Virus record (IMG/VR): IMGVR_UViG_3300032259_000009 | Coordinates: 1-37,460 of that record | Reading direction: 5' to 3' (one strand) | From: a virus | Taxonomy: Duplodnaviria > Caudoviricetes | Length of the DNA stretch: 37,460 bases | Program-made: the position numbers and the translations under genes | Shown: in pieces, positions 877 to 37,460 of the stretch | Layout: each line of letters begins with the position of its first letter | Position numbering within the stretch: position 1 is the stretch's first letter | The notes under the pieces: generated by a model | What the model saw: only the letters and a program-made list of their open reading frames with translations | Database searches by the model: none | Told to the model about the DNA's origin: nothing

Positions 877-1302
877 TTATAAAAGCTGAAAATGCACCAG
901 ATCATCAAATGTCTGATCAGACAGATAATGATCCCGATCCCAATCACCACCCCAACGAATAGAGATGCCCATCTCTCTTGCTTTAGCATGGACAATACCC
1001 GCAAAGTAGTAAAACTGATTTAGATCCTTGATGTATGTATCGCTGCCAGGTACCGGCCATGGTATGCCTTTTATCTCGCCCAGGTACGGCCCAACATCAA
1101 CGGCGTTGCTCGGTGACACGTTATGCTTCCCAAATTTAACCTTGGATCGCTTGGCATAGTATAGATCGATCTGTACTGATGGCGGCCTGTACCCCTCGAT
1201 GACCGTGCAATCGTGGACCTTGATGACTTCCATAAATAAGGCCTGCAGCCATGGGTGACAGGTATCCAGTTGCGCCTGTGATTTTTTAGAAAATGAAGCC
1301 AC
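877..1302 (-). CDS. Endolysin, M15-family zinc peptidase (T5-type L-Ala-D-Glu peptidase)
   Basis: Motifs EGYR…Q, KH…SNAVD, IRWGGDWD…DLVHFQL. Confidence 0.9.
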   Translation of the reverse strand: MASFSKKSQAQLDTCHPWLQALFMEVIKVHDCTVIEGYRPPSVQIDLYYAKRSKVKFGKHNVSPSNAVDVGPYLGEIKGIPWPVPGSDTYIKDLNQFYYFAGIVHAKAREMGISIRWGGDWDRDHYLSDQTFDDLVHFQLL

Positions 1303-1304
1303 TA

Positions 1305-1550
1305 TTACCCGCTTTTTGGTTTTATAAAAGCATGGTAGACAGCGGTGGCAATACCGCCAAGTATTGAAATAATGCCCCAGCCAAAAACCTGCGTCTTAAT
1401 CTTTTCCCATCGCTCTTGTTTTCGCTGTTCGCGCGCGATCATCATTCCAACAAACTGATGGTGTTCGCTATGCAACTCGTTATCGATCCGAGATCTTGTT
1501 TCAAGTACATTATGCAACACTGACTCAATGTCATCTTTTGTTAAGCTCAC
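1305..1550 (-). CDS. Small protein with a C-terminal TM segment (holin/antiholin-like)
   Basis: Coiled N-terminus then VFGWGIISILGGIATAVYHAF; first gene of the lysis cassette. Confidence 0.65.
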   Translation of the reverse strand: MSLTKDDIESVLHNVLETRSRIDNELHSEHHQFVGMMIAREQRKQERWEKIKTQVFGWGIISILGGIATAVYHAFIKPKSG

Positions 1551-1605: not shown

Positions 1606-1851
1606 ATGGATTTCCATGCCTTCTTTGTTAATTTTGACAACTACCTGAGATGTCTTTTTGCCTTCATCGTGTATCTAACGCTGATCGCCATACCGGCGGC
1701 AAAACTAACCATACTCGTTGCCAGAGAAACAGGAAACAAGCTCAATGGATCTGATATTTGGTGGTTCGACCTAATCGGCGTACTACTTCGATTGTCAACG
1801 GCGACCGTGTTTATTGCGCTATCACTCATGCCGATCATTTTGTTTTTTTAA
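1606..1851 (+). CDS. 81-aa two-TM membrane protein antisense to the late operon (superinfection-exclusion candidate)
   Basis: ATG at 1606, two hydrophobic helices, possible extended -10 TGgTAAGGT ending at 1598, convergent with the 2190-aa gene. Confidence 0.5.
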   Translation: MDFHAFFVNFDNYLRCLFAFIVYLTLIAIPAAKLTILVARETGNKLNGSDIWWFDLIGVLLRLSTATVFIALSLMPIILFF

Positions 1852-4800
1852 CCTCGGCATTGAGATTATCGAAAGCCTCTGAAAATACCTTGTTTTTCAT
1901 TATCTGCAAGCGGTCACGCTCGTTGGCTTTTTCTAGTGGCGATAAATCAGGATTGCGATATATCTGAACCATGGCGTTGTTAATTGCCCGAACCTTCTTG
2001 TTTATATTGCTGGTTGCCTTTTCGAGCGAGTACAACGGATCGGTGGCGTGCATTTCTGCCAGCGGTGCGTTCTGCCTTAACATCATTTCTTTACCGGTCC
2101 TAACAACCATGTGCGCATCGTGCGCCAAATCATAGAAAGCTTTTTGTTCTATGGTATTTTTCAGCGGGTGCTTGACCATGAACTTACGGGCTACCGGCCA
2201 TTCCTCCAAGCGCCACTTGGGCAGCTGGTCACCGTACAGGATTTCATCCGATATCATCAGGCCGTACATGCCCCACGTATTGAAATACCCACGGATTAAG
2301 GCCTCTGCGCGCCTCGGTGAAAATTGCAGCTCTTTAGGTAGGCCGGCCGTTTTCTCTGCCAGTCGCTGCAATGTCACGCTGGTATATGGCGACGACTGCG
2401 CATAAGGCATAAGGTCTTTTTGGCGGTCCGGAATAATCTGTCTACGTGTAAACCGGTTCTCATTCAGGGCATAGACTTCATATAGTGGCTCAAAAAATTG
2501 CGATGCCCAGTCCAGGCTAAACATGTTTACGAAAATTTCCTGCAGGTGCTTAGCGTATTTGGCACCATCCTTGTAACCCTTTTCAACCGAATCAAGATAC
2601 GCTCCGACGCTACGCTCCGCAGCCGATGATAGCGCGCCTATTTCCCATATCTTCGGAAAGTGTAGGTGTGTGTACTTTGACTCGCAACCGCCATCTTGAC
2701 CGGTAGGCACGAATACATGCCAATATGTATCTTTCTGCCAGTCCTCAAGGGATTCATAGCATGGATTTCCACGGTTGACGGCATACAGCCAGGCCGATAA
2801 AACGGCTAAAGCTCCTGACTTGGCCATGATGGCATGCCGGTTGGTATCGCGCGTGAAACCTCGATACACGCGGTCCAGGCTGTTAGCGCCGGCTTTCAAA
2901 AACATCACCGTATTGTATAGCCTGTTCATGGATATATCGTCACCGCGCATGGAAAAGTCGGTGGATATCTCCCGTGCCAGATATGCCGCTTCGCGCACCG
3001 GTCGGCCGCGCATTGTTGCTCGACGGAACTCACCCAGGCGCGTACTCATTTCAGCCGCATCGGCCAACAGCTCGAGGCCCAGCAGGACCCGCTGCGGCGT
3101 GTGCATCACCAGCCGCCAGTTGATATGCCGCGATTCGTAAAAATGCTTGATATGATCTTCAAAGGCTACCGGATCCAGCAGGTACGACGACATGCCGCCA
3201 CCGTTGGCGATAAACGCCCGATAATTAGCATTACGCGACAAGCGCGACCACATACCCAATGCGGAATCTATGCCAGGCTTAAATCCATTTTGCGAAAATA
3301 TAAACGAGTGCATCGCATCCCGCCACATATTTGCAGTTGCGAAATCCAGCGTTAGCGTGACGGTGCTTTGACCAATCCGGCGAACGGCATTAGCGAAGCG
3401 CCAGAATTTGCCATGGTCGAATTTCCGGTTAAGCGACACATAGGCGCGATACAACAGCGGATCCGCGACCTCATAGTATTCTGTCTTGCCATCGCGCTTG
3501 ACGGCTATCACATTATCGCCTTTCGGTGTCTGGCCATGGATCCAAAAACCCACCATATCACTGAGATTCAGCTTGACTTCTTCGAGCATGGCATCAATGG
3601 TCGGATCGCCCTGGCCCATTTTTGCGGCGCGATTGTACTGCGCAGGATCCAATCCGAGGCCCTCCAGAAACGCATTGATTACCTGGTCCTTGTCGATCTG
3701 CACCTTGGCGTTATCGGTCGGGATCCTCTCGATGAACTTGCCGGCGTTCTCGCGCATAGCGTAATCGACGATCTTCAGCCGGGCGCGATTCTTTACACCC
3801 TCACTTATGATCCGCGTGGCATTGGCCGTCATGTTTTCCACAATATCATTGAGATTAGCCGTGCCTCCACGTAAGGCCTTGAACGGCTGTATATTTCCTT
3901 CGATACCCTTTTGTCTCTTGGTGCTGCCCTTCTGACCTACACGATAAAACGGGATATACAGATCGCGCTTAAACTTCGCACGCTGCTTCCGCGTTAGGAT
4001 TTGCGTTTGTTCTGCAAAATCAAGTATTGCGTTATTCCATTTTAGCCAGTCCTGAAACGCTGCCTCGAAGTGCGGCTTGCCTTTCCCGAGCTCTAACCCG
4101 GCATTGATCATATCCGGCTTAATTAGATTCTCTCGGCCCTGCTTCATCAGCTCGCTAGCTGACCGTGCGGTAACGTAGAGCTTCCAATCGTCCAACTCAT
4201 GTGACACCGGTTTTAGCACATCACGCAGCCCCCACGATTTGAACTTGGGGTTATCAACGGCCTTACCTTTTGAGTTGATCAAAAACGATGGCTCACCGTT
4301 ACGGTCGATGTAGTTCCATTCACCTTCACCAAGGATCCTGGGCGGTCCGTATTTCATGCTACCTTCAACAGCCGATGCTATGGCGCGCGACAGCCTGGCT
4401 TCCTGGTACGGACCCAGCGCAATAGCATCATCCTCACCAGTGACAGCCGTTTCGTACTTGAGCAAACCGTGTAAATCATCCAGAAAGGCCTGCCGGAATC
4501 GGTCATAAACGGTGTCCATGGTGTCTGTGTAAATCTTGGCTGTATCATCGCCACCATATATTGAACGTAACCGATCACGACTACTTTGCGCGTACCATGC
4601 TGACATACCCTGTTGCGCTTTCAGTATGGCCTTGCCATAGGGCGAATTGGGTATAAACTCAGTTTCCCAATACTTTGTAAATTCCGGCGCAACTTCCTGG
4701 GCATATTCCGGTGTAGTCATCCAGTGCCTGACAAATTCGGCAAATCCCTCGTGCAACTTCTTTGCATCATATGACACGCCTCTAAGCTCACGCGCGAAAG

Positions 4801-7800
4801 TCTCCCAGTTTTTATGTTTGCCACGGATCCACGGTTGACTCGATTTACTGCCACCGCGACCCTTGACGCGCCAGGTTGTATCATCAATATAGTGGGCCAG
4901 CTCATGCGCCGTTGTTTCAAGATCATTCATGTGCCGTATCCGGGTAGCGCGGCGCTTCGGCCCAAAGTAACCCATTGTACGTTCCATACCACGGCCCTTG
5001 ACGCGGCCCTGGTACAGCGTGGTGTTCAGTGCTTTCAGGAATGGCCGGATGATCTGCTCACGGCGTATCGGCTTTTTGCGATCAATGACTGACTCGTCAT
5101 ATTCCGAGTCAATAAATCCAGCGTATGTTTCGCCAGGACCTTTCTCTTTCGGGCGCTCACTCCGGAACTTGCTGCCGGTGGTAACCGAGCCACCACTTTC
5201 CATAATGCTTACTGGTTCGTTATTGCTATCAAAATAAAAAGCATCCAACACCTTGACGTTGGCTGCTGATAGCATATTACCCATGTTAAGCCTGGCTTCA
5301 TTTTCTCCGGTATCGTCTGTCTCTGTTTTGATGATAGCCGCAGCAGCGTTAGATTCGTGTACTGCGTTCAATACTTTTCGCAGACCGGCACCCTCGTTGT
5401 TCCTCAAGTAATTCATTTCCTCTTTGGAAACAGGTAAAAAACCAATAACACGGTGCCTGTTGTCTAACAATAAAACCCCAACCCCTTTATAGTCTCGAAT
5501 TATATCTTTTGCCTTATCCGGTGACGTTACTTCTCTGTTCGCTTTTACACGCTTACGCATAACGCGTTCAGTCACAGGTACGGTTTTCCCTCTAGGCCTT
5601 GCTGTAATCGTAAGTTTGGTTACTTTTCCATCTTCGTCCCGGGGTAAAAAACTTGCCTCTCTACCGATACCAAGGACTACGTGGCCCTTAAACTCAATAC
5701 CTGAGCCATCCAGTAAATCGCGTAGTTTCGCCGTCAAATTTGTGTCTGCGCTACTTGGCGTCGATTCTCCTGACGGGTGATTGTGTGCATAATAGACGCT
5801 CTTGGCGTCAGGAATAGATAAAACAGCCCCTGACATAGTACCGGGATCCACGGTAGCGCCATCCTTTACACCCAATGCCCCACGTAAAACGGTAATCGGT
5901 TTATTGTTTGCGTCCAGCACAAGCGCCAGGAAATTCTCTTGTGGGTGTCGTCGATATGATGCTACTGCGTGCGCGGCATCCTCAGCTGTATTTACTGTGT
6001 CCACACCAATATTGATTTTTCCTGTTTCTTCCAACTTGACCTTTACATTAAAATCGTTTTTGGCGTCCTCGATATTTTTAGGCTTCCCAGCTGCTGGCTC
6101 TTTCGGTGCTGATTCAGAATCGGCTATAGACTCGGATACTTTCTCACCATCGATCTTGTCGATCATGATATTGAAGCGTTTTTCCAGCTCGTCCTGCGAT
6201 ATATGCAGTTTTTTGTCCATTGCCTCCTTTGTGCGCTCGGGCCCGGCTTCATCTATGGCATTGCGCGCATTCATGATCGCCACTTTCACGGATCCCGCCG
6301 GCTTACCTACGCCAAAGCCTGTGTCTTTATGAATTGCCCTGTACTTACCGGCACTGTTCTTTCCGACAAAAAACAGGTGACCATTAATTTCTACCTCGTG
6401 TGTATCCGTGTAAAGCTGGGCACCATTGTTGGCGTCCTGGCCAAAAGCAATATTTCCAGTCAGCTTTCCCATTTCGTAGGCGTTACGGTATTCACCTGCA
6501 GCCAAGAACTCATGTGCGGAATAACCTTTTTTTTGAAAATTTCCGCCGGATGGTGCAATGGGTTTATTTTTCGGCTCGTTGAAGCCTGGGCTTGCCGATA
6601 CCTTCCGCCTGAACGCTGTAAGATTAGCCTTAGTATTCAATACCTTGAATTTTCCATCACCAGGTACATCAAACACGACATGGCCAATCTCGTCATAGTA
6701 TGAATGTGGTTTTTTGGCCTCAACTTCGCGGTCCGGTGCTTTCTTGATGGCAGAATCGATATCTTTCATGATCCCGGCCCGAGCTTTTTTTAGGTCCAGT
6801 GGCGTGTTTGCGGCGCTCTCAATAACGGCATCTGTGATCACTGCAGGTGTGGCTGGCTCTGACTGGTCGCCCTCAATGTGCGTGGCGGTTTGTGGTGGGT
6901 TCGATACGTCTGCAGAATCTACTGGCGTGGCTAACTGTCCAGTGTGTTCACGATAGGCTGTATAGCCATCATCGTAGGCTCCCCACTGGCTTTCGGGTAA
7001 GTAACTGCCATCATCTGCCTTTCCGGCTGCTGCATCATCCCAGCCAGCATTGAATCCAGGAGCATCGACCAACGATCTGTTTTCGCCTCGGTACTCGATC
7101 AGCTTGGCCTTGCGTGCGGCGGCATCTTTAGCCGGCCTGTTGGTTTTCGGGGCCTGCACTGGTACCGCCTTATTAGGCACTAATTGGTCACCAGATGGTG
7201 CGTTATCCGGCCGGATTGGCTCATTGCTGACGCTCTCGGCGGCTTTCTCGGCCGGGGATGCCATCACCTGCGCATGGCTCGGGTTAAGGGCTTCACGCGC
7301 CTTCTCCTGCGCTGATTGGGTAGGGTATGCGGCATCGACGTTGCGCTGCATTTCGCGGCCGACCCCGCGAAGGCCTCTGTTATTAAGATGGTCTATGTAA
7401 CTGGATATACCGGCCTGTGGCCCGCCTGCCAGCACGGTCGATGCCGATGTCAGTGCGATGGTGTCTATAACGTCCTCGGCCGTCACGTCATCCCTCATGC
7501 CGTGAAACCACTCACTGAGTATCTGCCCAACCTCGGATATGTTTTCGCCTGGCAGCTCCGCAGCCATGAAGTTGACAAGGCGCTTAAAAGGCCCGGTGCC
7601 AGTGTTAAACAGCACCTTGGCCGGAATGTACTCGGTACCTGACTCAAGCAGGCCGGACACAGCCGCATGTCGCAAAGCCTTGTCATTCGGCAATCCGGAT
7701 TCTTTAGCGTCAGCATAGGCCTGTCCGGCTGTAATGATACCGAACGAGGCGATAAGCGGGTGCGGGGATCTGGTCAAGGCACCGACAACAACGCCGGGCG

Positions 7801-8407
7801 TCATCTGCCCAAGCGAAACGCCGGCACTACTAACGGCCTGCTGCCAGAATGTTTGTCCTGTAGGGGTAATATTTTTGATACGCCTTTCGGCCTCAGATGC
7901 CATCTGCTGGCCTTTCTCTGCCTGGGCTATAGCCTGTGCTGTCTGCTGGCTTTTCTGCCGCCTCATGGCCTCTGACTTGGGTTCATAGCCTGGCGGAAAC
8001 GGTATACCAAAGGGCACGCGGCCAAGGTCACCCTGGGCCTCCATTAACCCGCCGGCACCGCGCTTCATACCCTTCGCGGTCAGCTCGGGTATTGCCTTAA
8101 GTGTTTCCATCCACTTTTCAGCGTCAAACGGCGGTTGCACCTGTTTCAAGCCGTGATCATATAGCGCAGCATTGACAGGATCGTTTACCGGGCCCGTTTC
8201 CAAGCTCATTTCGTTGCCTGGTTGGCCAGGGATATTCAGCGGCTCCTGACGCAGCTCCAAGCCTACATCTTTGGCAAAGGTCTGAAATTCGATATCAGCA
8301 CCCGTTTCGGCCTTGTATTGCTCATGCAATGCCTGGGTTATCTCGTAATCAGAATATTTGACCAGTCCGGGCTCTTTCTTCTTGGCCTGTTCCAGATAGT
8401 TTGCCAT
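1835..8407 (-). CDS. Large ejection/internal virion polyvalent protein (LPD38-like C-terminus, JAB/RadC domains, HExxH metallopeptidase-like motif)
   Basis: 2190 aa, last of three genes in the ejection-protein position. HNHPSGESTPSSAD JAB motif near 5745-5786 and HELAH near 4892-4906. C-terminal AREISTDFSMRG…WQKDTYWH…PKIWEIG pattern resembles LPD38. Confidence 0.8.
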   Translation of the reverse strand: MANYLEQAKKKEPGLVKYSDYEITQALHEQYKAETGADIEFQTFAKDVGLELRQEPLNIPGQPGNEMSLETGPVNDPVNAALYDHGLKQVQPPFDAEKWMETLKAIPELTAKGMKRGAGGLMEAQGDLGRVPFGIPFPPGYEPKSEAMRRQKSQQTAQAIAQAEKGQQMASEAERRIKNITPTGQTFWQQAVSSAGVSLGQMTPGVVVGALTRSPHPLIASFGIITAGQAYADAKESGLPNDKALRHAAVSGLLESGTEYIPAKVLFNTGTGPFKRLVNFMAAELPGENISEVGQILSEWFHGMRDDVTAEDVIDTIALTSASTVLAGGPQAGISSYIDHLNNRGLRGVGREMQRNVDAAYPTQSAQEKAREALNPSHAQVMASPAEKAAESVSNEPIRPDNAPSGDQLVPNKAVPVQAPKTNRPAKDAAARKAKLIEYRGENRSLVDAPGFNAGWDDAAAGKADDGSYLPESQWGAYDDGYTAYREHTGQLATPVDSADVSNPPQTATHIEGDQSEPATPAVITDAVIESAANTPLDLKKARAGIMKDIDSAIKKAPDREVEAKKPHSYYDEIGHVVFDVPGDGKFKVLNTKANLTAFRRKVSASPGFNEPKNKPIAPSGGNFQKKGYSAHEFLAAGEYRNAYEMGKLTGNIAFGQDANNGAQLYTDTHEVEINGHLFFVGKNSAGKYRAIHKDTGFGVGKPAGSVKVAIMNARNAIDEAGPERTKEAMDKKLHISQDELEKRFNIMIDKIDGEKVSESIADSESAPKEPAAGKPKNIEDAKNDFNVKVKLEETGKINIGVDTVNTAEDAAHAVASYRRHPQENFLALVLDANNKPITVLRGALGVKDGATVDPGTMSGAVLSIPDAKSVYYAHNHPSGESTPSSADTNLTAKLRDLLDGSGIEFKGHVVLGIGREASFLPRDEDGKVTKLTITARPRGKTVPVTERVMRKRVKANREVTSPDKAKDIIRDYKGVGVLLLDNRHRVIGFLPVSKEEMNYLRNNEGAGLRKVLNAVHESNAAAAIIKTETDDTGENEARLNMGNMLSAANVKVLDAFYFDSNNEPVSIMESGGSVTTGSKFRSERPKEKGPGETYAGFIDSEYDESVIDRKKPIRREQIIRPFLKALNTTLYQGRVKGRGMERTMGYFGPKRRATRIRHMNDLETTAHELAHYIDDTTWRVKGRGGSKSSQPWIRGKHKNWETFARELRGVSYDAKKLHEGFAEFVRHWMTTPEYAQEVAPEFTKYWETEFIPNSPYGKAILKAQQGMSAWYAQSSRDRLRSIYGGDDTAKIYTDTMDTVYDRFRQAFLDDLHGLLKYETAVTGEDDAIALGPYQEARLSRAIASAVEGSMKYGPPRILGEGEWNYIDRNGEPSFLINSKGKAVDNPKFKSWGLRDVLKPVSHELDDWKLYVTARSASELMKQGRENLIKPDMINAGLELGKGKPHFEAAFQDWLKWNNAILDFAEQTQILTRKQRAKFKRDLYIPFYRVGQKGSTKRQKGIEGNIQPFKALRGGTANLNDIVENMTANATRIISEGVKNRARLKIVDYAMRENAGKFIERIPTDNAKVQIDKDQVINAFLEGLGLDPAQYNRAAKMGQGDPTIDAMLEEVKLNLSDMVGFWIHGQTPKGDNVIAVKRDGKTEYYEVADPLLYRAYVSLNRKFDHGKFWRFANAVRRIGQSTVTLTLDFATANMWRDAMHSFIFSQNGFKPGIDSALGMWSRLSRNANYRAFIANGGGMSSYLLDPVAFEDHIKHFYESRHINWRLVMHTPQRVLLGLELLADAAEMSTRLGEFRRATMRGRPVREAAYLAREISTDFSMRGDDISMNRLYNTVMFLKAGANSLDRVYRGFTRDTNRHAIMAKSGALAVLSAWLYAVNRGNPCYESLEDWQKDTYWHVFVPTGQDGGCESKYTHLHFPKIWEIGALSSAAERSVGAYLDSVEKGYKDGAKYAKHLQEIFVNMFSLDWASQFFEPLYEVYALNENRFTRRQIIPDRQKDLMPYAQSSPYTSVTLQRLAEKTAGLPKELQFSPRRAEALIRGYFNTWGMYGLMISDEILYGDQLPKWRLEEWPVARKFMVKHPLKNTIEQKAFYDLAHDAHMVVRTGKEMMLRQNAPLAEMHATDPLYSLEKATSNINKKVRAINNAMVQIYRNPDLSPLEKANERDRLQIMKNKVFSEAFDNLNAEVKKTK

Positions 8408-21508: not shown

Positions 21509-21817
21509 TTACTCCGCCGGCTTGTGTTTAACAATTTTCAGCAATACAGATACGGGTGAACATACGCCAGTATCAAGTGTTGGCACACATTTGATCAGGT
21601 ATTCACTTTTATCAGGCGCATCAGAATCAGCCGTAATGATGACAGTGCCTACATTGCTGGCCACCTCCTCACCACTGAATGATATATTGCTATCCACCGG
21701 ATCAGATGTATATGCAACAGAAACAAGCGAGGATCCAGCAGGTAGCCGGCGCGTCCAATCAATTCCAAAGGTATCAGATCCACCAGTGGCCAATGCCGGC
21801 CAGCGTTTAGCGGCCAT
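21509..21817 (-). CDS. Small beta-sandwich fibre adaptor-like protein
   Basis: DTFGIDW…LP…Y.IKC…T pattern; last gene of a coupled fibre-like module. Confidence 0.55.
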   Translation of the reverse strand: MAAKRWPALATGGSDTFGIDWTRRLPAGSSLVSVAYTSDPVDSNISFSGEEVASNVGTVIITADSDAPDKSEYLIKCVPTLDTGVCSPVSVLLKIVKHKPAE

Positions 21818-23190
21818 TATCGATCACCTGCCCTAATTATATTGTCCTGATTGCCAAGTCTGATCATATTGTTTTGCTTCCCAATAAACAAAGTATTGAA
21901 TTTCTTATTAAGTATTGATACCAAGTTCGGTTTGCTCAGTTCAATTATGTTATTTTGTCGTGTCATTATAATAATCCGCTGGTCTTTAATTAAGAAGATC
22001 AGATTCTTCTTGATGATAACAATTACTTTCCAAAGTCTATCCCACCAGGCTTGCCACCATGATTTCGGTACACCTTCAGATGACATAAGCATCGTGTCAT
22101 GCGTCAATAGCCCCATTGTGGCCAGGACATGGTGGTATTCCTTGTAAACCCCTGTAGGCGCATCGAAAATAAAATGCACCGTTGCTGCGCCAATCTGCGC
22201 CGTCAGCGTGATAGGATCGACGGTTACCAGGAGCAATTGCACATCTGGCTCAGGCACATGCACTGACAGTGTGATCGAATCGGCTGGGACCTGAATAGCT
22301 ACGCTGGAACTGTTAATTGCCGCCAACAACACAATCGGGTCAACATCGATAAATAAGTCTTTCAGTATTGTAGTGGCTGGAAGTGATGCGCTCATGCCGA
22401 TTGCAGCATCAACAGCCAAGATTGAATAAAATTTTTCAATTGGCCAGACCCAGGTTTGCATCATAATCGGGTCAACAGCGATAAATAAGTCTTTCAGTAT
22501 TACCGGCACCGGCAACACAGTAGTCATTATGATAGGGCTGACCGCTACTTCAATCGGCCCCACTGGCCCCGGTAATGCCGTTGCCATAATAATTGGATTC
22601 GCCATAACAGTTGGCAGTATGAACGAATCATATTGCGCCGTTAAGCTGGTTATTCTTATGCCGCTGCGCTTTATTTGAAAAAACGTATTGCTAGGCGCTG
22701 TGTACGTTGAATCGGTAGCCGATGCTGTAACGCCGTCGAGTGTTGCTGATATAGACGTTCCGAGCACTGAAAAAACAACAGGATAAAAAGCGCGTGTTAA
22801 TTCGATATTGACCGATGTCGCGATTAATGTACCGCCAGCGTACAGCTCGATTTGTGCTGATTCATTTGAGCCAGTGCCTTTAACAACCTTACACTTGTAC
22901 CCACGCGCACCGATCATCAGATAATTGCCAGTTACAAACTGACCATACTGGCTGGTAAAATCTGCATTTAATGTTAAAACAACATCAGGATCTTCAAGCA
23001 CATTGCTGACATAAGCAGTGCCAAGTGTTAATGCTGAAATATTCTGTACAAAACCACCGCCAGGATTTATGGTCAATACGCTATTGGTATCGCTCCATGT
23101 CTTTCCGTATTCGTCAATTTCTGATGCGTGGTCGCTGAGTAACCCACTGCCGGTAAATGAGTCATAGCGAAATATTGAGCCAGCGGCCAC
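21817..23190 (-). CDS. Fibre-module protein: lectin-like N-domain, about 22-aa PIxM repeats, 9-aa C-terminal repeats
   Basis: YDSFTG…L N-terminus; seven V-x-P-I-x-[ML]…P units; RQNNIIEL/KQNNMIRL/NQDNIIRA tail. Confidence 0.6.
   Translation of the reverse strand: MAAGSIFRYDSFTGSGLLSDHASEIDEYGKTWSDTNSVLTINPGGGFVQNISALTLGTAYVSNVLEDPDVVLTLNADFTSQYGQFVTGNYLMIGARGYKCKVVKGTGSNESAQIELYAGGTLIATSVNIELTRAFYPVVFSVLGTSISATLDGVTASATDSTYTAPSNTFFQIKRSGIRITSLTAQYDSFILPTVMANPIIMATALPGPVGPIEVAVSPIIMTTVLPVPVILKDLFIAVDPIMMQTWVWPIEKFYSILAVDAAIGMSASLPATTILKDLFIDVDPIVLLAAINSSSVAIQVPADSITLSVHVPEPDVQLLLVTVDPITLTAQIGAATVHFIFDAPTGVYKEYHHVLATMGLLTHDTMLMSSEGVPKSWWQAWWDRLWKVIVIIKKNLIFLIKDQRIIIMTRQNNIIELSKPNLVSILNKKFNTLFIGKQNNMIRLGNQDNIIRAGDR
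22333..22501. repeat. 37-bp intragenic direct repeat (22333-22369, 22465-22501)
   Basis: AATCGGGTCAACA[T/G]CGATAAATAAGTCTTTCAGTATT, 1 mismatch, 132-nt offset; encodes ILKDLFIxVDPI twice. Confidence 0.9.
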
Positions 23191-23193
23191 GGC

Positions 23194-24561
23194 TTACGGC
23201 TCAGTAGCTTCAACCCTGGTGACGCCTGGATTGCTATTGTCATACAATATCATTTCTGTACCCTGATCGTCATATCTCTGAGTTTCGGTCTGTGTGATCG
23301 GGTTGCCTTTCTGCCAGCCCATTAATTTAATCAACCGGCGCAACTCATATTCAGCAATCGGCAAAAGATTAACCTTGCCACGGATATTCAATATATAGGC
23401 TTCGTATAGGCTAATCATAAACTCTACGTGCTCGGCGGCAACGTCAGCATTTCTGATTTTAACTTCCACCTGCCTGTCATCACCCACTTCTGCTGATAGC
23501 CGATAATACGTCGACGTAAGTCCATCAGTATTCGGTGATTCAACAACGCCTGTGCTTGTCCAGTCTAGCAACACTGTTCGAGCGCCTGCGGTCATATCAT
23601 AAATGGCAACCTCAACAGTACTGTTGGATGTAAATCCTGTAACACCAATAGCAGGCGGTTTGCCCATTACGTCAACATCGCGCACCACAAACAGCATGGA
23701 TATTGGCTGGGCTTCAATAACCGATGGAATGTTTGCAAAAGATGCGGGAATAGCAACATCAAATATTAACGGGGCAGCAAACGCGACAGTTTCTGTGCCT
23801 GCTACCGATGCGGGTATAAGGCTGTTTATTATAATTGGATCAGGCGTTATTGTGACCGGCGGGCTATACCATGATGATGCTGGTATTGCTGTTGCCATTG
23901 TTATCGGGCTTGCAATTACGGTGGTCGGTGCTGCTAGTATTTCTGTAAGATTTTCAACATAGCACGCTATTGAACTAGGGGCTGTAGCACCTGTTCCAAC
24001 GACACTAGGCCCCCATATATATCTAAAATCTACTTTAGCACTAAGCGCAATAGATAGATTATATGTGGCGCTTGTTTCGCTGTCGCGATTAGCACTTGTG
24101 CTATAAACATCAACATAAACAGTACCATTAGTGCCTACAGACTCATCTCTAGTGACGCGAATATATTGAACATCATCTTTGACTACGGTGTACGCGGTAA
24201 CGTCACTTGCAGTTATTGATCCGCCTGGATAACATTCAAGCAATAATAGTCTATTGCCGTTGAGGGATGTTTGAAGCCAAACCTCTATACAGGAATCATA
24301 GTCGTTTGGATCATTCGTTGTATTAGTTACACTCCATATAAGTGCAGACTGGGTACTAGTAGATGTCCATTCTGTGGTTAATACAGCATCAAGGGTAAAC
24401 TCAAAGTCGCCGTTATAATATGCAGCGCCCTGATCTAACCATAACTGTGCATCATTTGTCCCATCGCACGCAGCGAGCGTTGCTCTAGCGCTTGTGGTAG
24501 AAAGCAATGTACCAGCGTCTGCTCCAGCGGCGGTGAATGTTGTGAAGTTTAATACACCCAC
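23194..24561 (-). CDS. Fibre-module protein: beta-rich N-domain plus four PIxx…IPA repeats
   Basis: Thr/Ser-rich; ASPITMATAIPAS / PDPIIINSLIPAS / AAPLIFDVAIPAS / AQPISML. Confidence 0.6.
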   Translation of the reverse strand: MGVLNFTTFTAAGADAGTLLSTTSARATLAACDGTNDAQLWLDQGAAYYNGDFEFTLDAVLTTEWTSTSTQSALIWSVTNTTNDPNDYDSCIEVWLQTSLNGNRLLLLECYPGGSITASDVTAYTVVKDDVQYIRVTRDESVGTNGTVYVDVYSTSANRDSETSATYNLSIALSAKVDFRYIWGPSVVGTGATAPSSIACYVENLTEILAAPTTVIASPITMATAIPASSWYSPPVTITPDPIIINSLIPASVAGTETVAFAAPLIFDVAIPASFANIPSVIEAQPISMLFVVRDVDVMGKPPAIGVTGFTSNSTVEVAIYDMTAGARTVLLDWTSTGVVESPNTDGLTSTYYRLSAEVGDDRQVEVKIRNADVAAEHVEFMISLYEAYILNIRGKVNLLPIAEYELRRLIKLMGWQKGNPITQTETQRYDDQGTEMILYDNSNPGVTRVEATEP

Positions 24562-25931
24562 TATGAGACACCTATGATTTTATTTCCTGACCCCGTATTT
24601 ACGCTCGGATACCCTGCGCCACTTCCAGCCGCAAAGGTACTCAACACATTATTATTGCCAGTAACATAATAATTGCCGCTGCTATGATAATGTCCAACAT
24701 TACTTATCGCACATTTATTAGCACCAATTAATTTAACTGCATACCCTGCAAAGAGGTTATCAAAATAAGCATCGTTCATGTACTGTTGGTCAGCGTGCGA
24801 TTCAAAGCCATGCTTGGATAAATAGCCGTGTATATGCCTGTATTGCATAAAATCACCACCCGCAATATAAATACAGGACTCTACATTAGCACCATGTACT
24901 GTGGAAATGGTTGAAGTAAGCCTATGTCCTCGGAAATCAATATTGTCTAAAAGGCCGCCACCATAAGGCGCGACGGTATCCATATAGAACCCATAGTTTC
25001 TAAAACCCTCAATAAACGTGTCTCGAATAGTTAATGACCATGCGATTCTGTGGGTAACGCCGCGCCAGAATCTTGATAGGTTCATATTTAAAATATTTAC
25101 ACTCGATACAATCCCACTGCTCCCGTAAGTTTCGTATGCCTCGCCTGTAGTTACGCCACCGACCGCTATACCTGAATAACCTGCCATCTCAATGGTACTG
25201 TGAGGCTCCAATACAAAACCATTCAGTGTGCAATTGTTTGACCCGGCAAACATCATGTCATCGTCATCGAATCTTTGATAAATTATAGCTACTGGTGTTT
25301 GCGTGAAATACGGACCGCTTAAATGCGGGTATTCATTTAATGATATATACAAATCGCACCCAAACATCCCAGGGCCAAACACCTGAGTTCCTAGTTTGGT
25401 AAACTCTAGCTTGCTGGTTACTATGGATTTTAAACCACTCGGCAAGTATGACTTAGAAAGGTTCCCTTCATTTAAATAATTCTGTATCGCAACAGTGTCA
25501 TCATGATAGACAGTCGTTCCGGCACTTTTTGTAGTAACGATGGTGTCATTAAGATCAATCCTTCCTCCACCGGAAACACTGTATACACTTGTAATCAGAT
25601 CAGCTCCCGCTGTCCCTGCACCCACAATAGCTATTCCGTGTCCGGCGCTATAGTGTGTGTTGTCTACAACATAAATGTAATTATTGCCAGACACAACCGG
25701 TGAAGCCAGTACAGTTTCCGTATCAACTCCAGCAGCACTATAATCATCAATTACGCTAGACCATTCGCCGGCCATAACAAATGGAGGACTGCCGCCATTG
25801 TTTGGTACCCACTCATTACCTGTGTTGGACGAATTGCGAGCCAACAAATAACTGGCAACTGGTGACGGAACATCAGTTAAGTCTACAAGTCTCTGGAATA
25901 CTGCACTAATAAACCTGCCGAATGTAGACAT
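24561..25931 (-). CDS. Tailspike/depolymerase-like right-handed beta-helix protein
   Basis: N-terminal LVDLTDV anchor, DDTVAIQ cap motif of pectate-lyase-like beta-helices, Asn/Gly-rich rungs; visibly more AT-rich than the core genes. Confidence 0.7.
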   Translation of the reverse strand: MSTFGRFISAVFQRLVDLTDVPSPVASYLLARNSSNTGNEWVPNNGGSPPFVMAGEWSSVIDDYSAAGVDTETVLASPVVSGNNYIYVVDNTHYSAGHGIAIVGAGTAGADLITSVYSVSGGGRIDLNDTIVTTKSAGTTVYHDDTVAIQNYLNEGNLSKSYLPSGLKSIVTSKLEFTKLGTQVFGPGMFGCDLYISLNEYPHLSGPYFTQTPVAIIYQRFDDDDMMFAGSNNCTLNGFVLEPHSTIEMAGYSGIAVGGVTTGEAYETYGSSGIVSSVNILNMNLSRFWRGVTHRIAWSLTIRDTFIEGFRNYGFYMDTVAPYGGGLLDNIDFRGHRLTSTISTVHGANVESCIYIAGGDFMQYRHIHGYLSKHGFESHADQQYMNDAYFDNLFAGYAVKLIGANKCAISNVGHYHSSGNYYVTGNNNVLSTFAAGSGAGYPSVNTGSGNKIIGVS

Positions 25932-31340: not shown

Positions 31341-31616
31341 CTATGACTTAAAGTCATCTGGCACACTCCAAAGTACATCAGGGCGCAATTCCTGGCGGGT
31401 TACCGCACCCTTAACAATATGCTCTATGGCCGGCGCAAACTCAGCCGGGGTACGTTTATCGCGGTTAATCCAATTCCAGATATGTGCCTGTTTTACGGTT
31501 TTCGTGGAGTCATTGATCAACTCATTAAGCTGCCTGGCAAGGCTTGTTTGTCCTTTTGCCAGATCCACAGCTCTTATCAGGGCGATCTGTTCTTGTGTCA
31601 GCTTAGGTGTACTCAT
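31341..31616 (-). CDS. cro: Cro/YdaS-like HTH regulator, 91 aa, probably leaderless
   Basis: GQTSLAR…KQAHIWNW…P…IE…GAVTRQELRPD; the ATG is 7 nt after the -10 box and has no RBS. Confidence 0.85.
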   Translation of the reverse strand: MSTPKLTQEQIALIRAVDLAKGQTSLARQLNELINDSTKTVKQAHIWNWINRDKRTPAEFAPAIEHIVKGAVTRQELRPDVLWSVPDDFKS

Positions 31617-31623
31617 GAGCGGG

Positions 31624-31652
31624 AATATACAACCGCAGTTGTGAGGTGTCAA
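31624..31652 (-). promoter_or_regulatory. PR-like sigma70 promoter
   Basis: TTGACA(31652-31647)-N17-TATATT(31629-31624). Confidence 0.88.
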
Positions 31653-31753
31653 TAACTCATGTTGTTTGACAGAAACAAAGGGCCAGCTAAAGGTTGGTGC
31701 TTTTTTGCCGATCACTAAAACGATGGTTGTTGACAGTCCACAACTCTGGTTGT
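31629..31753. promoter_or_regulatory. Four 14-bp operators, ACAAC-N4-GTTGT
   Basis: ACAACCGCAGTTGT 31629-42, ATAACTCATGTTGT 31652-65, AAAACGATGGTTGT 31717-30, ACAACTCTGGTTGT 31740-53. Each pair is 23 bp apart and overlaps a promoter. Confidence 0.85.
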
Positions 31754-31758
31754 ATATT
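31730..31758 (+). promoter_or_regulatory. PL-like sigma70 promoter
   Basis: TTGACA(31730-35)-N17-TATATT(31753-58); predicted TSS about 31765. Confidence 0.88.
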
Positions 31759-31766
31759 TCAAATAT

Positions 31767-31877
31767 GATTCTTGGGCTGTTACTGCGTAGCTCCGGGGCT
31801 TTTCGGTTAGTTGAGTGCAGCTAAGCCTAGAAGTGACGACCTAGCACTGACCGGCCAGCGCAGTCCAGGAATCTCCA
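31767..31877 (+). ncRNA. Copy 1 of the stem-UCCA element: 111-nt structured leader RNA
   Basis: GATTCTTGGGCTG(31767-79) pairs with CAGTCCAGGAATC(31861-73) with 2 G-U pairs, then TCCA. Inner stems CGGTTAGT/ACTGACCG and CTAG/CTAG. Starts at the predicted TSS. Confidence 0.65.
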
Positions 31878-31927
31878 TATAGGTTAGAGAATAAACAAGA
31901 CAATGATTAAACAACGGGAGAACGATT

Positions 31928-32083
31928 GTGAAGCAGGAAAAAATAATTAACATGGCTGAACGCAGACACCAAAAGATGCTCAATCAACCAAACGATCGCG
32001 GCATGGAGATGCTTGCTTACGCGATAGTCGTCTTGTTTGTCGGGATACTGCTGTTTGTTGTTCTTGCGTTTGACTTGCAATAA
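31928..32083 (+). CDS. 51-aa C-terminal TM protein, first early gene (GTG start)
   Basis: GGGAG RBS; TM LAYAIVVLFVGILLFVVLAF. Below the ORF-track cutoff. Confidence 0.65.
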   Translation: MKQEKIINMAERRHQKMLNQPNDRGMEMLAYAIVVLFVGILLFVVLAFDLQ

Positions 32084-32096
32084 CAGGGGAAATGAA

Positions 32097-32567
32097 ATGG
32101 ATACAAAAAGTAAACGCAAAATGATAGCGCAAGCAAAAGAATTTATTGCAGAGCTTGAAGCCAGCATCGATGCCGATGTTAAAGGTGAGGTTAAGCCGTG
32201 GGAGCCGCCTCCTGGGGAGTGGTGGATAGGTGGTAGTGGTGAAGTTCACAGGTTGTCGTCTACTGAGGAATCCCGGCTATTCGGCACTGAGCGCCACAAA
32301 AAGGCTCTTGCACTGAGAGCTGTGAAGAAAATGAGGCGCTTCAACGTACTTCTGGCGTACATAGATAAGTACGCCCCGGACTATGAGCCGGATTGGAGTA
32401 ACGAGAACGAGCCGAAGTTTTGCCCACGATATAACCATCAAACAGGTAAATGGGTGAGAAGTGTGGGCTATCGGTTTGAAGGAGTAAACCCCTATGGGCC
32501 ATTCGATGTAATCGACGGGCTTATAGAGAAGCTGAATCGCGGTGAGGTGGTGCTGTGGCACGATTAA
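32097..32567 (+). CDS. Phage hypothetical protein, 156 aa
   Basis: AGGGG RBS; MDTK start; YEPDWSNENEPKF motif. Confidence 0.7.
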   Translation: MDTKSKRKMIAQAKEFIAELEASIDADVKGEVKPWEPPPGEWWIGGSGEVHRLSSTEESRLFGTERHKKALALRAVKKMRRFNVLLAYIDKYAPDYEPDWSNENEPKFCPRYNHQTGKWVRSVGYRFEGVNPYGPFDVIDGLIEKLNRGEVVLWHD

Positions 32568-32815
32568 TCGCTATCAGCATATCTGTCCTATTGTCCGGCT
32601 GTCAGATATTTGCGGGCGTTGCGGTGCACCCGGAAAACTACGATGCCCCGGATGTTCGGTTGTCGCGCGGGGTTGGGTTTGTTATGGCCACGCAAAAATT
32701 ACCTGGAACGGATAACCTGTATCTGATCGGTCAGCACGATAGTGGGTTGAACACTAAGGAGCGTTCACCTCTGGGTGGGCTGAACAAGCTCGGCGTAATG
32801 GTGGAGATAAAGTAA
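32555..32815 (+). CDS. Lipoprotein, beta-strand-rich
   Basis: GAGGTG RBS; LLSG|C lipobox. Confidence 0.7.
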   Translation: MARLIAISISVLLSGCQIFAGVAVHPENYDAPDVRLSRGVGFVMATQKLPGTDNLYLIGQHDSGLNTKERSPLGGLNKLGVMVEIK

Positions 32816-32850
32816 TTATGACACTAAACGAAGACTAGGAGAACTAAGTT

Positions 32851-33051
32851 ATGAAGACACTTAATAAAACTGTGTTGCTTTTGGCTGCTTGTAGCGCCTT
32901 GTTATTCGCCGGGTGTAGTGATAACGCTGAACTATATGCAAATAACAAAAAGGCTTTTCAGGCTTGTCTTGATTCTGGTGGTGTGCCGATACAGTCGTGG
33001 TTCAATGAAAAGATAATAGGCGATTGCATCTATAAACCTGATGGCAACTAA
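32851..33051 (+). CDS. Small lipoprotein
   Basis: AGGAG RBS; LFAG|C lipobox; two further Cys. Confidence 0.7.
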   Translation: MKTLNKTVLLLAACSALLFAGCSDNAELYANNKKAFQACLDSGGVPIQSWFNEKIIGDCIYKPDGN

Positions 33052-33063
33052 TGGGGTGAGGAT

Positions 33064-33315
33064 ATGAAGAACAAACTAGCGCTGATGTACGGAATAAACC
33101 AGTCTTATAAAAAGCCTGAACCTGAGCGGAAAGTTAACCATCACCCGCCCGTCAAAACAGGCATGACGTATGAAAAAGCTTGTGAGCTCAGGCGAAAAAT
33201 AAGGGCTGGCAAGGACGGTACAGGCCCGGCTTATAATCGCAGTGACGCGGCACGGGAATACGGGCTGTCTTTAACAGCCGTGAGCGATATTCTAACAATG
33301 AAAGAGTTGACTTAA
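33064..33315 (+). CDS. Small protein with a C-terminal HTH-like motif
   Basis: GAGGA RBS; NRSDAAREYGLSLTAVSDIL. Confidence 0.65.
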   Translation: MKNKLALMYGINQSYKKPEPERKVNHHPPVKTGMTYEKACELRRKIRAGKDGTGPAYNRSDAAREYGLSLTAVSDILTMKELT

Positions 33316-33316
33316 G

Positions 33317-33481
33317 ATGAAACTATACATACAGGTAGGTGTCAGCAATCTGACAGAAGAAAGAGGCTTGGCCGTTACCTCCACAAACAGGGAGGCGTTA
33401 GAAAAGACGATCCCACCGGGATACAAAATCATCGAGGTTGATGTGCCAGAGATGGTGGGAGCAGGGCATGAAAGTCAGTGA
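33317..33481 (+). CDS. 54-aa hypothetical protein
   Basis: Fills the gap between neighbours (MKLYIQVG…HESQ). Confidence 0.45.
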   Translation: MKLYIQVGVSNLTEERGLAVTSTNREALEKTIPPGYKIIEVDVPEMVGAGHESQ

Positions 33482-33650
33482 ACTGAAAGGGGAGAAGCTG
33501 GATTATTGGGTGGGGATACGTGTCATGAAAGACTACATCAAACCCTATCAGCGCACCGGGGAAAACCCGTTGAGATATTTTGCCAGAAGGTTCAAGCCGA
33601 TGGCCACCTGGTCACGGCTACCGATTTTCATTGTTAAGCAGGCGGATTAA
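33468..33650 (+). CDS. 60-aa ORF with a NinX/DUF2591-like N-terminus, probably truncated
   Basis: MKVSELKGEKLDYWVG resembles the NinX-family start; GGAG RBS. Confidence 0.5.
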   Translation: MKVSELKGEKLDYWVGIRVMKDYIKPYQRTGENPLRYFARRFKPMATWSRLPIFIVKQAD

Positions 33651-36316: not shown

Positions 36317-36478
36317 ATGTTTTATCTAGCACTAATGATTGCATTCATATATCTGGGACTTAGCGTTTTGTCGTATATAGAGAAAGACAATGGCTGGGTG
36401 AGGCCTTATTTTTCTTATCTTTTTCTTGCTAACTTATGGATGATCTGCGCCTGGTTTATTTATAACAGTGACGGTTAA
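36317..36478 (+). CDS. 53-aa two-TM membrane protein
   Basis: Very hydrophobic; GGAGG/GAGG RBS; the stop lies inside the 36-bp repeat. Confidence 0.6.
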   Translation: MFYLALMIAFIYLGLSVLSYIEKDNGWVRPYFSYLFLANLWMICAWFIYNSDG

Positions 36479-36857
36479 GCGTAAGGGGAAGCGGAAATGA
36501 ATAAGGAAGCGATTAAGTTGTGCGGTTGAGAATGAGGAGGAGCGACGAATGAGCAACCCGAACGAACGCCTTGTTATGTGTAAAGGTAAAAATTGCAACT
36601 CAGTTAATGGGCGAATGCACTCCAGAGAATGCAGGAGTGAGCACGATGCAGCAGTCTATTACGGCGCAGGCAATAGAAACCACTATGAGAGGTATCTAGG
36701 TTACAAGGGTAAACGATTACCAGAAAAGCATACACGAGACCAGTATTTTGCATGGTTGGAAGGGCGTAACGCCAGAGAAGACAGCTAACAGATAGATATA
36801 CAGAGTTATGATTCTTGGGCTGTGACGGTTAAGCGTAAGGGGAAGCGGAAATGAATA
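36468..36857 (+). repeat. 36-bp exact direct repeat (36468-36503, 36822-36857)
   Basis: GTGACGGTTAAGCGTAAGGGGAAGCGGAAATGAATA contains a TAA, an RBS and an ATG. Confidence 0.95.
36549..36788 (+). CDS. 79-aa Cys/His-containing hypothetical protein
   Basis: GAGGAGG RBS; C-x4-C…H-x3-C-x3-H. Confidence 0.7.
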   Translation: MSNPNERLVMCKGKNCNSVNGRMHSRECRSEHDAAVYYGAGNRNHYERYLGYKGKRLPEKHTRDQYFAWLEGRNAREDS

Positions 36858-37067
36858 TTGACGGACGAGGGGCAACAGTGGTGGGGGCGGATATCGTCCT
36901 GGGAAAGCATAGTCGCATCTGGAACATGCGGCTTGTGAACTGCGACATTGATGACTTGGACGCTACATACCCGTGGGCGAATAACTGCCAGTTTGAGGGG
37001 TGTAGGATGCGCAGCCAATGGGAGGCAGAACAAAAACTGACCGGCCAGCGCAGTCCAGGAATCTCCA
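36810..37067 (+). ncRNA. Copy 2 of the stem-UCCA element, enclosing an ORF
   Basis: GATTCTTGGGCTGTG(36810-24)/CGCAGTCCAGGAATC(37049-63) forms 15 bp, plus CGGTTA/TGACCG, then TCCA. Confidence 0.55.
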
Positions 37068-37072
37068 TATAG
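36851..37072 (+). CDS. 73-aa hypothetical protein inside the RNA element
   Basis: RBS and ATG come from the 36-bp repeat; the C-terminus and stop come from the stem-UCCA repeat. Confidence 0.5.
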   Translation: MNIDGRGATVVGADIVLGKHSRIWNMRLVNCDIDDLDATYPWANNCQFEGCRMRSQWEAEQKLTGQRSPGISI

Positions 37073-37370
37073 GTGAAGATATGAAAACAGAAAAAAGGGG
37101 TAGATAAATGGATGTAATTATTAATGGTATAAAATATATGCCTGAACGAAAGGTAACAAAAAAGAAAAGACCTTTTTCCGTTCTGCTGAGGGAAACCAGA
37201 AAGCTAAGTGGCGAGACTTTAGAAAAGGCGGCAAAAAGTTTAGGAGTTACGAAAAGTTACATATGGGAACTGGAGAAAGGCGGGGCAGCTCCAGGACTAG
37301 GGGTAGTGCAAAAAGCAATTAAGCACTATGGTATTACGTTTGATGAGATTGAAGACATATAGGTGAAGAT
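37066..37370 (+). repeat. 15-bp direct repeat CATATAGGTGAAGAT (37066-80, 37356-70) flanking the HTH gene
   Basis: Exact match; each copy supplies a TAG stop and an AGGTGA RBS. Confidence 0.85.
37108..37362 (+). CDS. XRE-family HTH protein
   Basis: LRETRK…TLEKAAKSLGVTKSYIWELEKG…P…HYGIT. Confidence 0.9.
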   Translation: MDVIINGIKYMPERKVTKKKRPFSVLLRETRKLSGETLEKAAKSLGVTKSYIWELEKGGAAPGLGVVQKAIKHYGITFDEIEDI

Positions 37371-37392
37371 GGCATGGAATTAAGGAGGCGAG

Positions 37393-37460
37393 ATGAAGAT
37401 TAAGAAAACTTTTACTATTGAAACAAGTGAAGAAGTTATGGATACATTTGAGCGGTTTTT
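37393..37460 (+). CDS. 5' part of the ORF that continues at position 1
   Basis: TAAGGAGG RBS; MKIKKTFTIETSEEVMDTFERF runs off the window end. Confidence 0.65.
   Translation, partial: MKIKKTFTIETSEEVMDTFERF

Follow-up and report, generated by a model that had tools for sequence, protein, structure and literature searches.

Bacterial RNase P favours a U at position −1 and a G at position +1 of its substrates, pairs with the 3′ RCCA and uses the T-loop to measure a 12-bp stem, and pairing of a leader with the RCCA acts as an anti-determinant that blocks cleavage (PMC10731613). Hairpins devoid of a T-loop, namely the 4.5S, M3, CI and C4 RNAs, are cut as well (PMC5499578), and the 5′ end of C4 is matured by RNase P (PMC5320573, PMC5499578). 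T4 species 1 RNA and other CCA-ended phage RNAs lack a known function (PMC9697503). Allo-tRNAs of the 8/4 and 9/3 types and the 8/5 tRNA-Sec have a lengthened acceptor stem and are reported from phages and near toxin-antitoxin genes (PMC5389517). YrlA Y RNAs, which also occur in phages, mimic tRNA with a T-arm and paired ends, and some of them are cut by RNase P and gain a CCA (PMC4201824). Cutting of phage leaders by RNase III is known (PMC5371410), and phages carry attC sites (PMC9892861).

The window analysed here is a whole virus record of 37,460 bases. PHROGs assigned to its 51 proteins a podophage-type gene set (portal, capsid, head closure, ejection protein and endolysin) together with a lambdoid replication gene and a cro-like repressor; among the same 51 proteins there was neither an integrase nor a CI-type gene between the divergent promoters. 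On the minus strand, positions 1835-8407 encode a 2190-aa protein with RadC-like JAB and LPD38 domains, a large polyvalent protein that is likely ejected with the DNA, and positions 21817-25931 hold three tandem ORFs of 455-457 aa, the last of which alone has a (weak) PHROGs match. The stretch is contained, whole or in part, in three sediment DNA runs.

An initial annotation of this DNA had proposed a repeated RNA element with a tRNA-acceptor-like stem, a 3′ UCCA and interchangeable interiors. We found no description of it in the open papers (supplements of large ncRNA surveys could hold one). Rfam gave nothing at gathering score in the window, and matches at relaxed E-values in 31600-32000, 36400-37460 and five loci were at chance level, in agreement with the initial remark that the element was not recognised as a described family.

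A repeated frame at the head of an early operon

Copy 1 of the element lies at an early promoter and comprises the following features.

31730..31758, plus strand: sigma-70-type promoter TTGACA-17-TATATT of the early recombination-gene operon; G31767 lies 9 nt past it
31767..31877, plus strand: whole element of copy 1, with a 14-bp stem extendable across a mismatch and a bulge and the outer UCCA at 31874-31877
31767..31780, plus strand: 5′ arm of copy 1, from complementarity and fold
within 31767..31877, plus strand: interior of copy 1, 79 nt, non-coding, with hairpins and no T-arm by folding
31856..31877, plus strand: 3′ module of copy 1, an 18-nt arm with the inner UCCA (31864-31867), plus the outer UCCA
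31878..31884, plus strand: invariant YATAGGT after the CCA, the start of the next ribosome-binding region

The 13-nt 3′ core of the frame, CAGTCCAGGAATC, occurs exactly three times in the window, at positions 76, 31861 and 37051, and the complementary 5′ arm twice, at 31767 and 36810. The 3′ repeats form a family 42 nt in length with 83-100% identity. The terminal stem closes 79 nt with 14 bp in copy 1 and 224 nt with 15 bp in copy 2, with terminal pair probabilities of 0.88-1.0. The RNase P-type ends that had been claimed for this repeated RNA-level frame (U at −1, G at +1 and NCCA) are present. The claimed stem of 12 bp was not borne out: with 14 and 15 bp in copies 1 and 2, and 18 bp in the relatives described below, the stem does not have the 12-bp ruler length.

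The promoter ahead of copy 1 agrees with the earlier placement of this copy at a predicted early transcription start. A start site set by this promoter would, we infer, put a leader of 1-3 nt before copy 1; ahead of the internal copies there is no promoter of similar quality. From 31730, the plus-strand operon carries small ORFs and exonuclease-type and recombination-type genes, and lambda PL likewise combines small ORFs with exonuclease-type genes. Positions 31624-31758 hold two identical divergent TTGACA-17-TATATT promoters within 33-bp inverted repeats, with the cro-like gene between them. Behind copy 1, the small-ORF region at 31900-33500 is highly variable among the reads, many of which end loosely there, and two sediment runs skip 252 bases at 32811-33064.

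Stems of at least 12 bp followed by NCCA were found at 210 sites in 2.2 Mb of fetched loci, compared with 157-317 sites for seven control tails. A stem with NCCA is by itself ordinary; what stands out is that one identical frame recurs while the interiors it encloses are unrelated. In a blind scan for stem plus NCCA three element copies came out at the top, and C4 RNAs called by Rfam were among the next matches.

Relatives in sediment metagenomes

A metagenome scan returned 74 matches: the window's own three, four in relatives (L099, L120, L131 and L146) and 67 chance matches with at best 7-11 of 13 pairs. In L099, L120 and L131 the element is complete, an uninterrupted 18-bp stem closing 190, 192 and 108 nt; L146 begins only within the interior. 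By their record names, all relatives share a single series of sediment records with the window, and they are therefore not independent habitats.

Over the five complete copies the 18-pair stem is kept in 97.8% of 90 cells. Fourteen of the 18 pairs are invariant, three carry one-sided changes that keep pairing, and one shows a mismatch, the only departure. Double compensatory changes were seen in 0/18 pairs (the shuffle control was uninformative), and the covariation argument of the initial annotation, in which one of three 5′ arms also rests on a putative join, is not supported. Copies 1 and 2 have their G-U pairs in common, as one shared state and not as independent changes. One unpaired orphan arm in L131 carries a pair-breaking change. 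In all five copies folding is better on the transcribed strand than on its complement. Compared with shuffles, the interiors show no gain in stability (z 0.1 to 1.2); for the whole of copy 1, z is −1.4. The near-identity of the frame is what recent recombination alone would give.

A diverged homologue was found in none of IMG/VR, GTDB, INPHARED and plasmids. In IMG/VR the 3′ arm had no match (the window's own and very near records are possibly outside the searched set), the upstream junction had five, all unrelated, and the 5′ arm had 119, none with the full partner arm and UCCA. GTDB gave one match, inside a gene; INPHARED gave nothing meaningful and plasmids none. The element was present in 0/5 related virus records, and protein-guided locus searches led to distant phages only, apart from one record with a 100% capsid match that does not contain the element.

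Copy 2 encloses a cassette gene

Copy 2 and the repeats around it lie near the right end of the window.

36810..37067, plus strand: copy 2, a 15-bp stem closing 224 nt, with the outer UCCA at 37064-37067
36851..37072, plus strand: cassette gene (73 aa) enclosed by copy 2 and fused with the 3′ arm, the stop lying just 3′ of the outer CCA
36468..36503, plus strand: 36-bp cassette-head repeat (RBS and ATG), identical to 36822-36857
36786..36810, plus strand: shared upstream junction TAAC-15 nt-GTTATG, overlapped by the stop of the upstream gene; the same in L099, L120 and L131
37356..37372, plus strand: orphan 3′ flank CATATAGGTGAAGATGG without a stem, behind an HTH gene; also in L099 and L131

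The interior of copy 2 thus consists of the cassette head, that is, the RBS repeat, and the 73-aa gene. Two candidate homologues were compared with it as proteins: P0002 ends in KLTGA, before the arm, while P0001 (93%) shares the fusion. Because of this difference, copy 2 would most simply be the product of a crossover at a 10-nt stretch that it has in common with copy 1. We take the TAAC...GTTATG junction to be attC-core-like, and positions 36545-36590 of the window and ~2130-2170 of L131, ahead of small cassette genes that start GTTATG, look to us like right attC halves.

The 5′ arm of copy 3 depends on the joining of contig ends

1..92, plus strand: copy 3, the 3′ part of an L131-type element, with interior 1-70, arm 71-88 and outer UCCA 89-92
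37454..37460, plus strand: end of a truncated cassette gene starting at 37393; 5′ arm of copy 3 only if joined to base 1

The 5′ arm of copy 3, GGTTTTTGGACT, exists solely if base 1 is placed directly after base 37460, and the window ends share no terminal repeat that would support this. Of the three elements claimed, copies 1 and 2 stand, with 14-15-bp stems plus UCCA, as does the 3′ half of copy 3; the proposed 5′ arm of copy 3 hinges on the contig-end join. The sequence of copy 3 is identical to L131 at 110/110 bases. In L131 both contig-end flanks are found in the same order, ~570 bases apart, the left-end gene runs on (FERFLALLHH...), and the same interior has a normal 5′ arm 118 nt upstream of the 13-nt core. 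When the three sediment runs were compared with L131, the 37460/1 joint was not seen in any of them, a result that contigs cannot turn into proof of absence, and the intact L131 element was covered in two (X1 and X2). A real stem-preserving deletion may nevertheless have made the join, because random joins so rarely yield a 12-bp stem (53 of 222,851). For the element itself the join gives no evidence.

The frame resembles the ends of a tRNA

In L099 and L120 a T-stem and T-loop lie exactly at the tRNA position (joint occurrence in 0/5000 shuffles each, with a T-loop score that uses canonical positions and was set up after the sequences were seen). The T-arm of L099 has a probability of 0.88; that of L120 contains one mismatch and an extra base and is absent from the minimum-energy fold. 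L131 has a 7-bp stacked helix at the T-arm position (p 0.08), and neither a T-arm (p 0.85 and 0.95) nor a D-arm-like hairpin is present in copies 1 and 2 of the window. In the three relatives, the 5′ arm is followed by UG and then by a 3-bp D-arm-like hairpin (p 0.03-0.05), which in L120 presumably resembles that of tRNA-Leu. Because two relatives end in a T-arm at the tRNA position, the frame is likely tRNA-derived, as judged from sequence and predicted folds, and the arms found at the right positions in relatives strengthen the tRNA-like reading of the initial annotation.

Thirty-five viral loci contain the exact T-arm hairpin of L099 (17 bases); 21 of these, from 3/9 sequence families, have a CCA 8 nt further on, at the spacing of canonical tRNAs, which lends the L099 hairpin outside support. 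Two of the CCA-bearing families lie between tRNAs called by Rfam (20 of the 35 loci scanned). In the element, CCAs lie 9 and 19 nt past the T-stem position: an inner 8-bp acceptor with its UCCA is placed under a 10-nt paired leader, and an outer UCCA follows. The discriminator is U, not the purine of RCCA, and the outer pairs G-C, A-U and U-A with U73 lack G3-U70.

No tRNA was called by default ARAGORN (0 genes in the window and relatives) or by the Rfam tRNA model. The acceptor branch of the outer frame is 18/5, with interiors of 79-224 nt across the window and relatives, the inner 8/5 frame is masked, and there is no 12-13-bp branch with an anticodon arm. With a relaxed ARAGORN threshold (70%), L099 and L120 were parsed as tmRNA-like, with tRNA-like ends around a body that holds a short ORF; its tag was not identified. 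At ~58-108 of the element, L099 and L120 both have a purine-rich stretch and a 14-15-codon ORF at nearly equal position, which could be chance.

Other tRNA-like RNAs were encountered along the way. A mini tRNA-like RNA of ~70 nt, with a short bulged acceptor, two small hairpins, a UGAAAUC T-loop and UCCA, is found in 18 viral loci (L395, L397, L400, L403, L406-L411, L413-L415, L419, L420, L422, L423 and L425, at ~450-530, oriented). A TTGACA-17-TATAAT promoter stands upstream of it in the two loci read, and it is called neither by relaxed ARAGORN (L395, L400) nor by Rfam (loci scanned). Within tRNA clusters, L392/L404 (450-528) and L402 carry tRNA-like RNAs of ~80 and ~110 nt in which the T-loop again reads UGAAAUC and a CCA is present; Rfam leaves these RNAs uncalled while calling their neighbours.

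Probable exchange of interiors within a near-invariant frame

Interiors are unrelated in 10/10 pairs, allowing for ten tests (the best pair was reached by 10/500 shuffles). The interchangeability that had been proposed is supported, with the addition that the interior of copy 2 proves to be a 73-aa ORF. In the reads of the three sediment runs the flanks stay the same while the interiors differ. Joints 36824-37043 and 36824-37048 place other interiors between copy-2-type flanks, and one contig has the copy-1 arm behind the copy-2 upstream junction; the short sides of these joints and of the contig are 21-30 bases at 85% likeness, and we therefore use them as supporting observations only. In L146 an L131-type interior is joined to the 3′ flank of copy 1, and in L120 and L131 orphan 5′ arms without a 3′ arm of their own head gene cassettes. 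All in all, this arrangement of sequences suggests that the repeated ends probably act as recombination handles for swapping interiors. A two-sequence RNAalifold of the L099 and L120 interiors was set aside, since these interiors are not detectably homologous.

Comparison with described RNAs

Among the closest RNAs in outline are P1/P7 C4 and P4 CI (RF01695), with which the element shares a 17-18-bp terminal stem, a UAU|G start, a CCA-like end and a position in an early operon. C4, however, has two fixed inner hairpins and a′/b′ loops with targets, whereas the element has unrelated interiors, differing folds and tRNA arms. The RF01695 model scored 71-81 bits on the positive controls L026, L035 and L004 and did not match the element. 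Pairs of isrK and C4 antisense RNA lie at 1526-1714 of L026, 1630-1818 of L035 and 1129-1308 of L004, in phages related via the recombination protein.

T4 species 1 RNA (rnaC) resembles the element in that its ends pair, a T-arm adjoins the 3′ strand and the body is expanded. It differs in having a canonical T-arm, a short acceptor, a place in a tRNA cluster and late expression, and it has no 10-bp extension, second CCA or swapping. ARAGORN found no tRNA genes in the window or relatives, so the element is not in a tRNA cluster. The terminal acceptor identity set of tmRNA consists of G3-U70 and A73. In the relaxed ARAGORN parse L099 and L120 are alike to tmRNA, but the element measures ~230 nt, its tag is unrecognised, its third pair is U-A and its discriminator U, there is no G3-U70 at the outer end, and neither default ARAGORN nor Rfam calls a tmRNA. 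Allo-tRNAs and tRNA-Sec combine a 12-13-bp branch with an anticodon arm; the element has an 18/5 branch and other sequence in place of an anticodon arm. The YrlA RNAs are set apart by the missing Rfam match and by the tRNA module of the element, which is not permuted, and no match to Ro60 was found with Pfam (11 proteins) or PHROGs (51 proteins). Finally, the RNase III stem of the lambda N leader, like the element, is a long stem that closes a large loop just before the first PL ribosome site; it needs a boxA/nut context, is single-copy and has no NCCA, whereas the element is boxA-less and has NCCA. Two things about the element are new: its double CCA is nested, and whole interiors are probably exchanged.

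Proposed processing and alternative explanations

We assign a probability of about 0.5 to the reading that a tRNA-derived frame is cut by RNase P at U|G and trimmed at the 3′ side to CCA, giving stable tRNA-mimic RNAs whose ends double as shuffling handles. The inner 8 bp with the inner UCCA would be the old acceptor end. The 10-nt leader would pair over it and block the inner RNase P site, so that the free outer site (U at −1, G at +1 and UCCA) would be used instead, as a plain hairpin substrate in the manner of 4.5S, C4 and CI RNA. If the host RNase P cut at U|G and the 3′ side were trimmed back to the outer CCA, RNAs of 111-258 nt would be released. The product would be uncharged, because the outer pairs lack G3-U70, the identity pair for alanine, and the arm exceeds by 10 bp what the ribosome accommodates. 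Since such RNAs would be both uncharged and too long for the ribosome, they would most likely serve to decoy host enzymes that recognise tRNA ends. As a by-product, the cut would in cis leave a flush 5′ end, protected by the stem, upstream of the next ribosome site. Copy 1 keeps the stem and CCA alone. Copy 2 would be a recombinant with a protein gene, and trimming would turn it into an mRNA that lacks a stop codon. Copy 3 represents part of an L131-type RNA.

The main alternative, which we regard as unlikely, is that the element is an RNase III processing stem like that of the lambda N leader, a long helix around some 100-200 nt in which a cut in mid-helix frees the next ribosome site or the inner 8-bp tRNA-like RNA. 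Together with the T-stem the helix amounts to 23 bp, with the inner site near its middle; copy 1 stands at the head of a PL-like operon, and AGGT lies directly 3′ of the element, with an ATG nearby in most copies. Among 24 boxA-like sites in 161 fetched loci, five have a long stem before a ribosome site, a layout shared with the lambda N leader, and the stem in one of them (L186) starts GATTC and ends GAATCTCA, like the element. However, NCCA follows the stem in 0/5 of these boxA-linked leaders, no boxA was found in the early region of the window or in the four relatives, and RNase III would leave the invariant outer UCCA and the T-arms unexplained. L007 (~1226-1370, plus strand) and L186 (~4866-4990, minus strand) each hold a boxA, a 14-19-bp long-range stem and the first ribosome site, with no Rfam match.

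Quite unlikely, in our view, is that the arms are remnant ends of a decayed tRNA-like gene that serve mainly as homologous recombination handles for early cassettes, the window copies having no RNA function. This would agree with the orphan arms, the 36-bp head, the 3′ flank and the TAAC junction that bound cassette genes, with the gene fusion at the shared 10-nt stretch in copy 2, with the lack of double covariation and near-identity of the frame, and with the exonuclease and recombination-type proteins encoded in the operon. Handles need identity, though, not complementarity, and the three one-sided changes all keep pairing; moreover, three relatives keep an apparently non-coding interior of 108-192 nt between perfect arms.

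Comparably doubtful is a more elaborate version in which the double-CCA frame would act as a tRNA scaffold, processed by RNase P and perhaps by RNase III at the inner acceptor. It would carry swappable counter-defence RNA cargos, the stop-less mRNA of copy 2 included, and its 3′ arm would be an external guide sequence directing RNase P to the orphan 5′ arms.

We consider it very unlikely that the stem stays uncut and acts in cis at or near the 5′ end, shielding the downstream message from decay or insulating cassettes, whatever the interior. Copy 1 does begin 1-3 nt after the predicted start site, and an interior can even be a gene. The internal copies, however, have no comparable promoter, so a cut would be needed there, and an uncut stem does not explain the CCA and the T-arm.

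A C4/CI-type antisense immunity RNA in place of a repressor is highly improbable. The stem of 17-18 bp and the UAU|G start are shared with the C4 matches in L026, L035 and L004, and the scan of 51 proteins found no integrase, nor any CI-type repressor in the interval between the divergent promoters. Against this, no C4 match appeared at any threshold tried, and complementary early-operon words were not in excess when perfect 8-11-mers were scored (for 8-mers of copy 1, 3 found vs 6.3 expected); an upstream target is impossible for copy 1.

A DNA-level element, in the form of a small mobile unit with terminal inverted repeats or of a single-strand hairpin like attC, is scarcely credible: cassette genes do stop at the TAAC...GTTATG junction adjoining the arm, but the arms differ by wobble-type changes, a target duplication was not seen, the stem lacks an inverse-core/core layout, the core-like words lie off the stem in the 25-nt junction before the arm, no integrase was found among the 51 proteins, and DNA folding is unremarkable (z −1.2).

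Processing by RNase P into tRNA-mimic RNAs is thus the reading that we favour. Within a single phage population, one fixed frame surrounds at least four unrelated interiors, non-coding or coding. A fixed frame with varied bodies separates the role of the ends from the role of the body and offers a ready test series. If the favoured reading is true, it would add a nested double-CCA substrate to the biology of RNase P, and these phages would shuffle RNA cargo as they shuffle gene cassettes.
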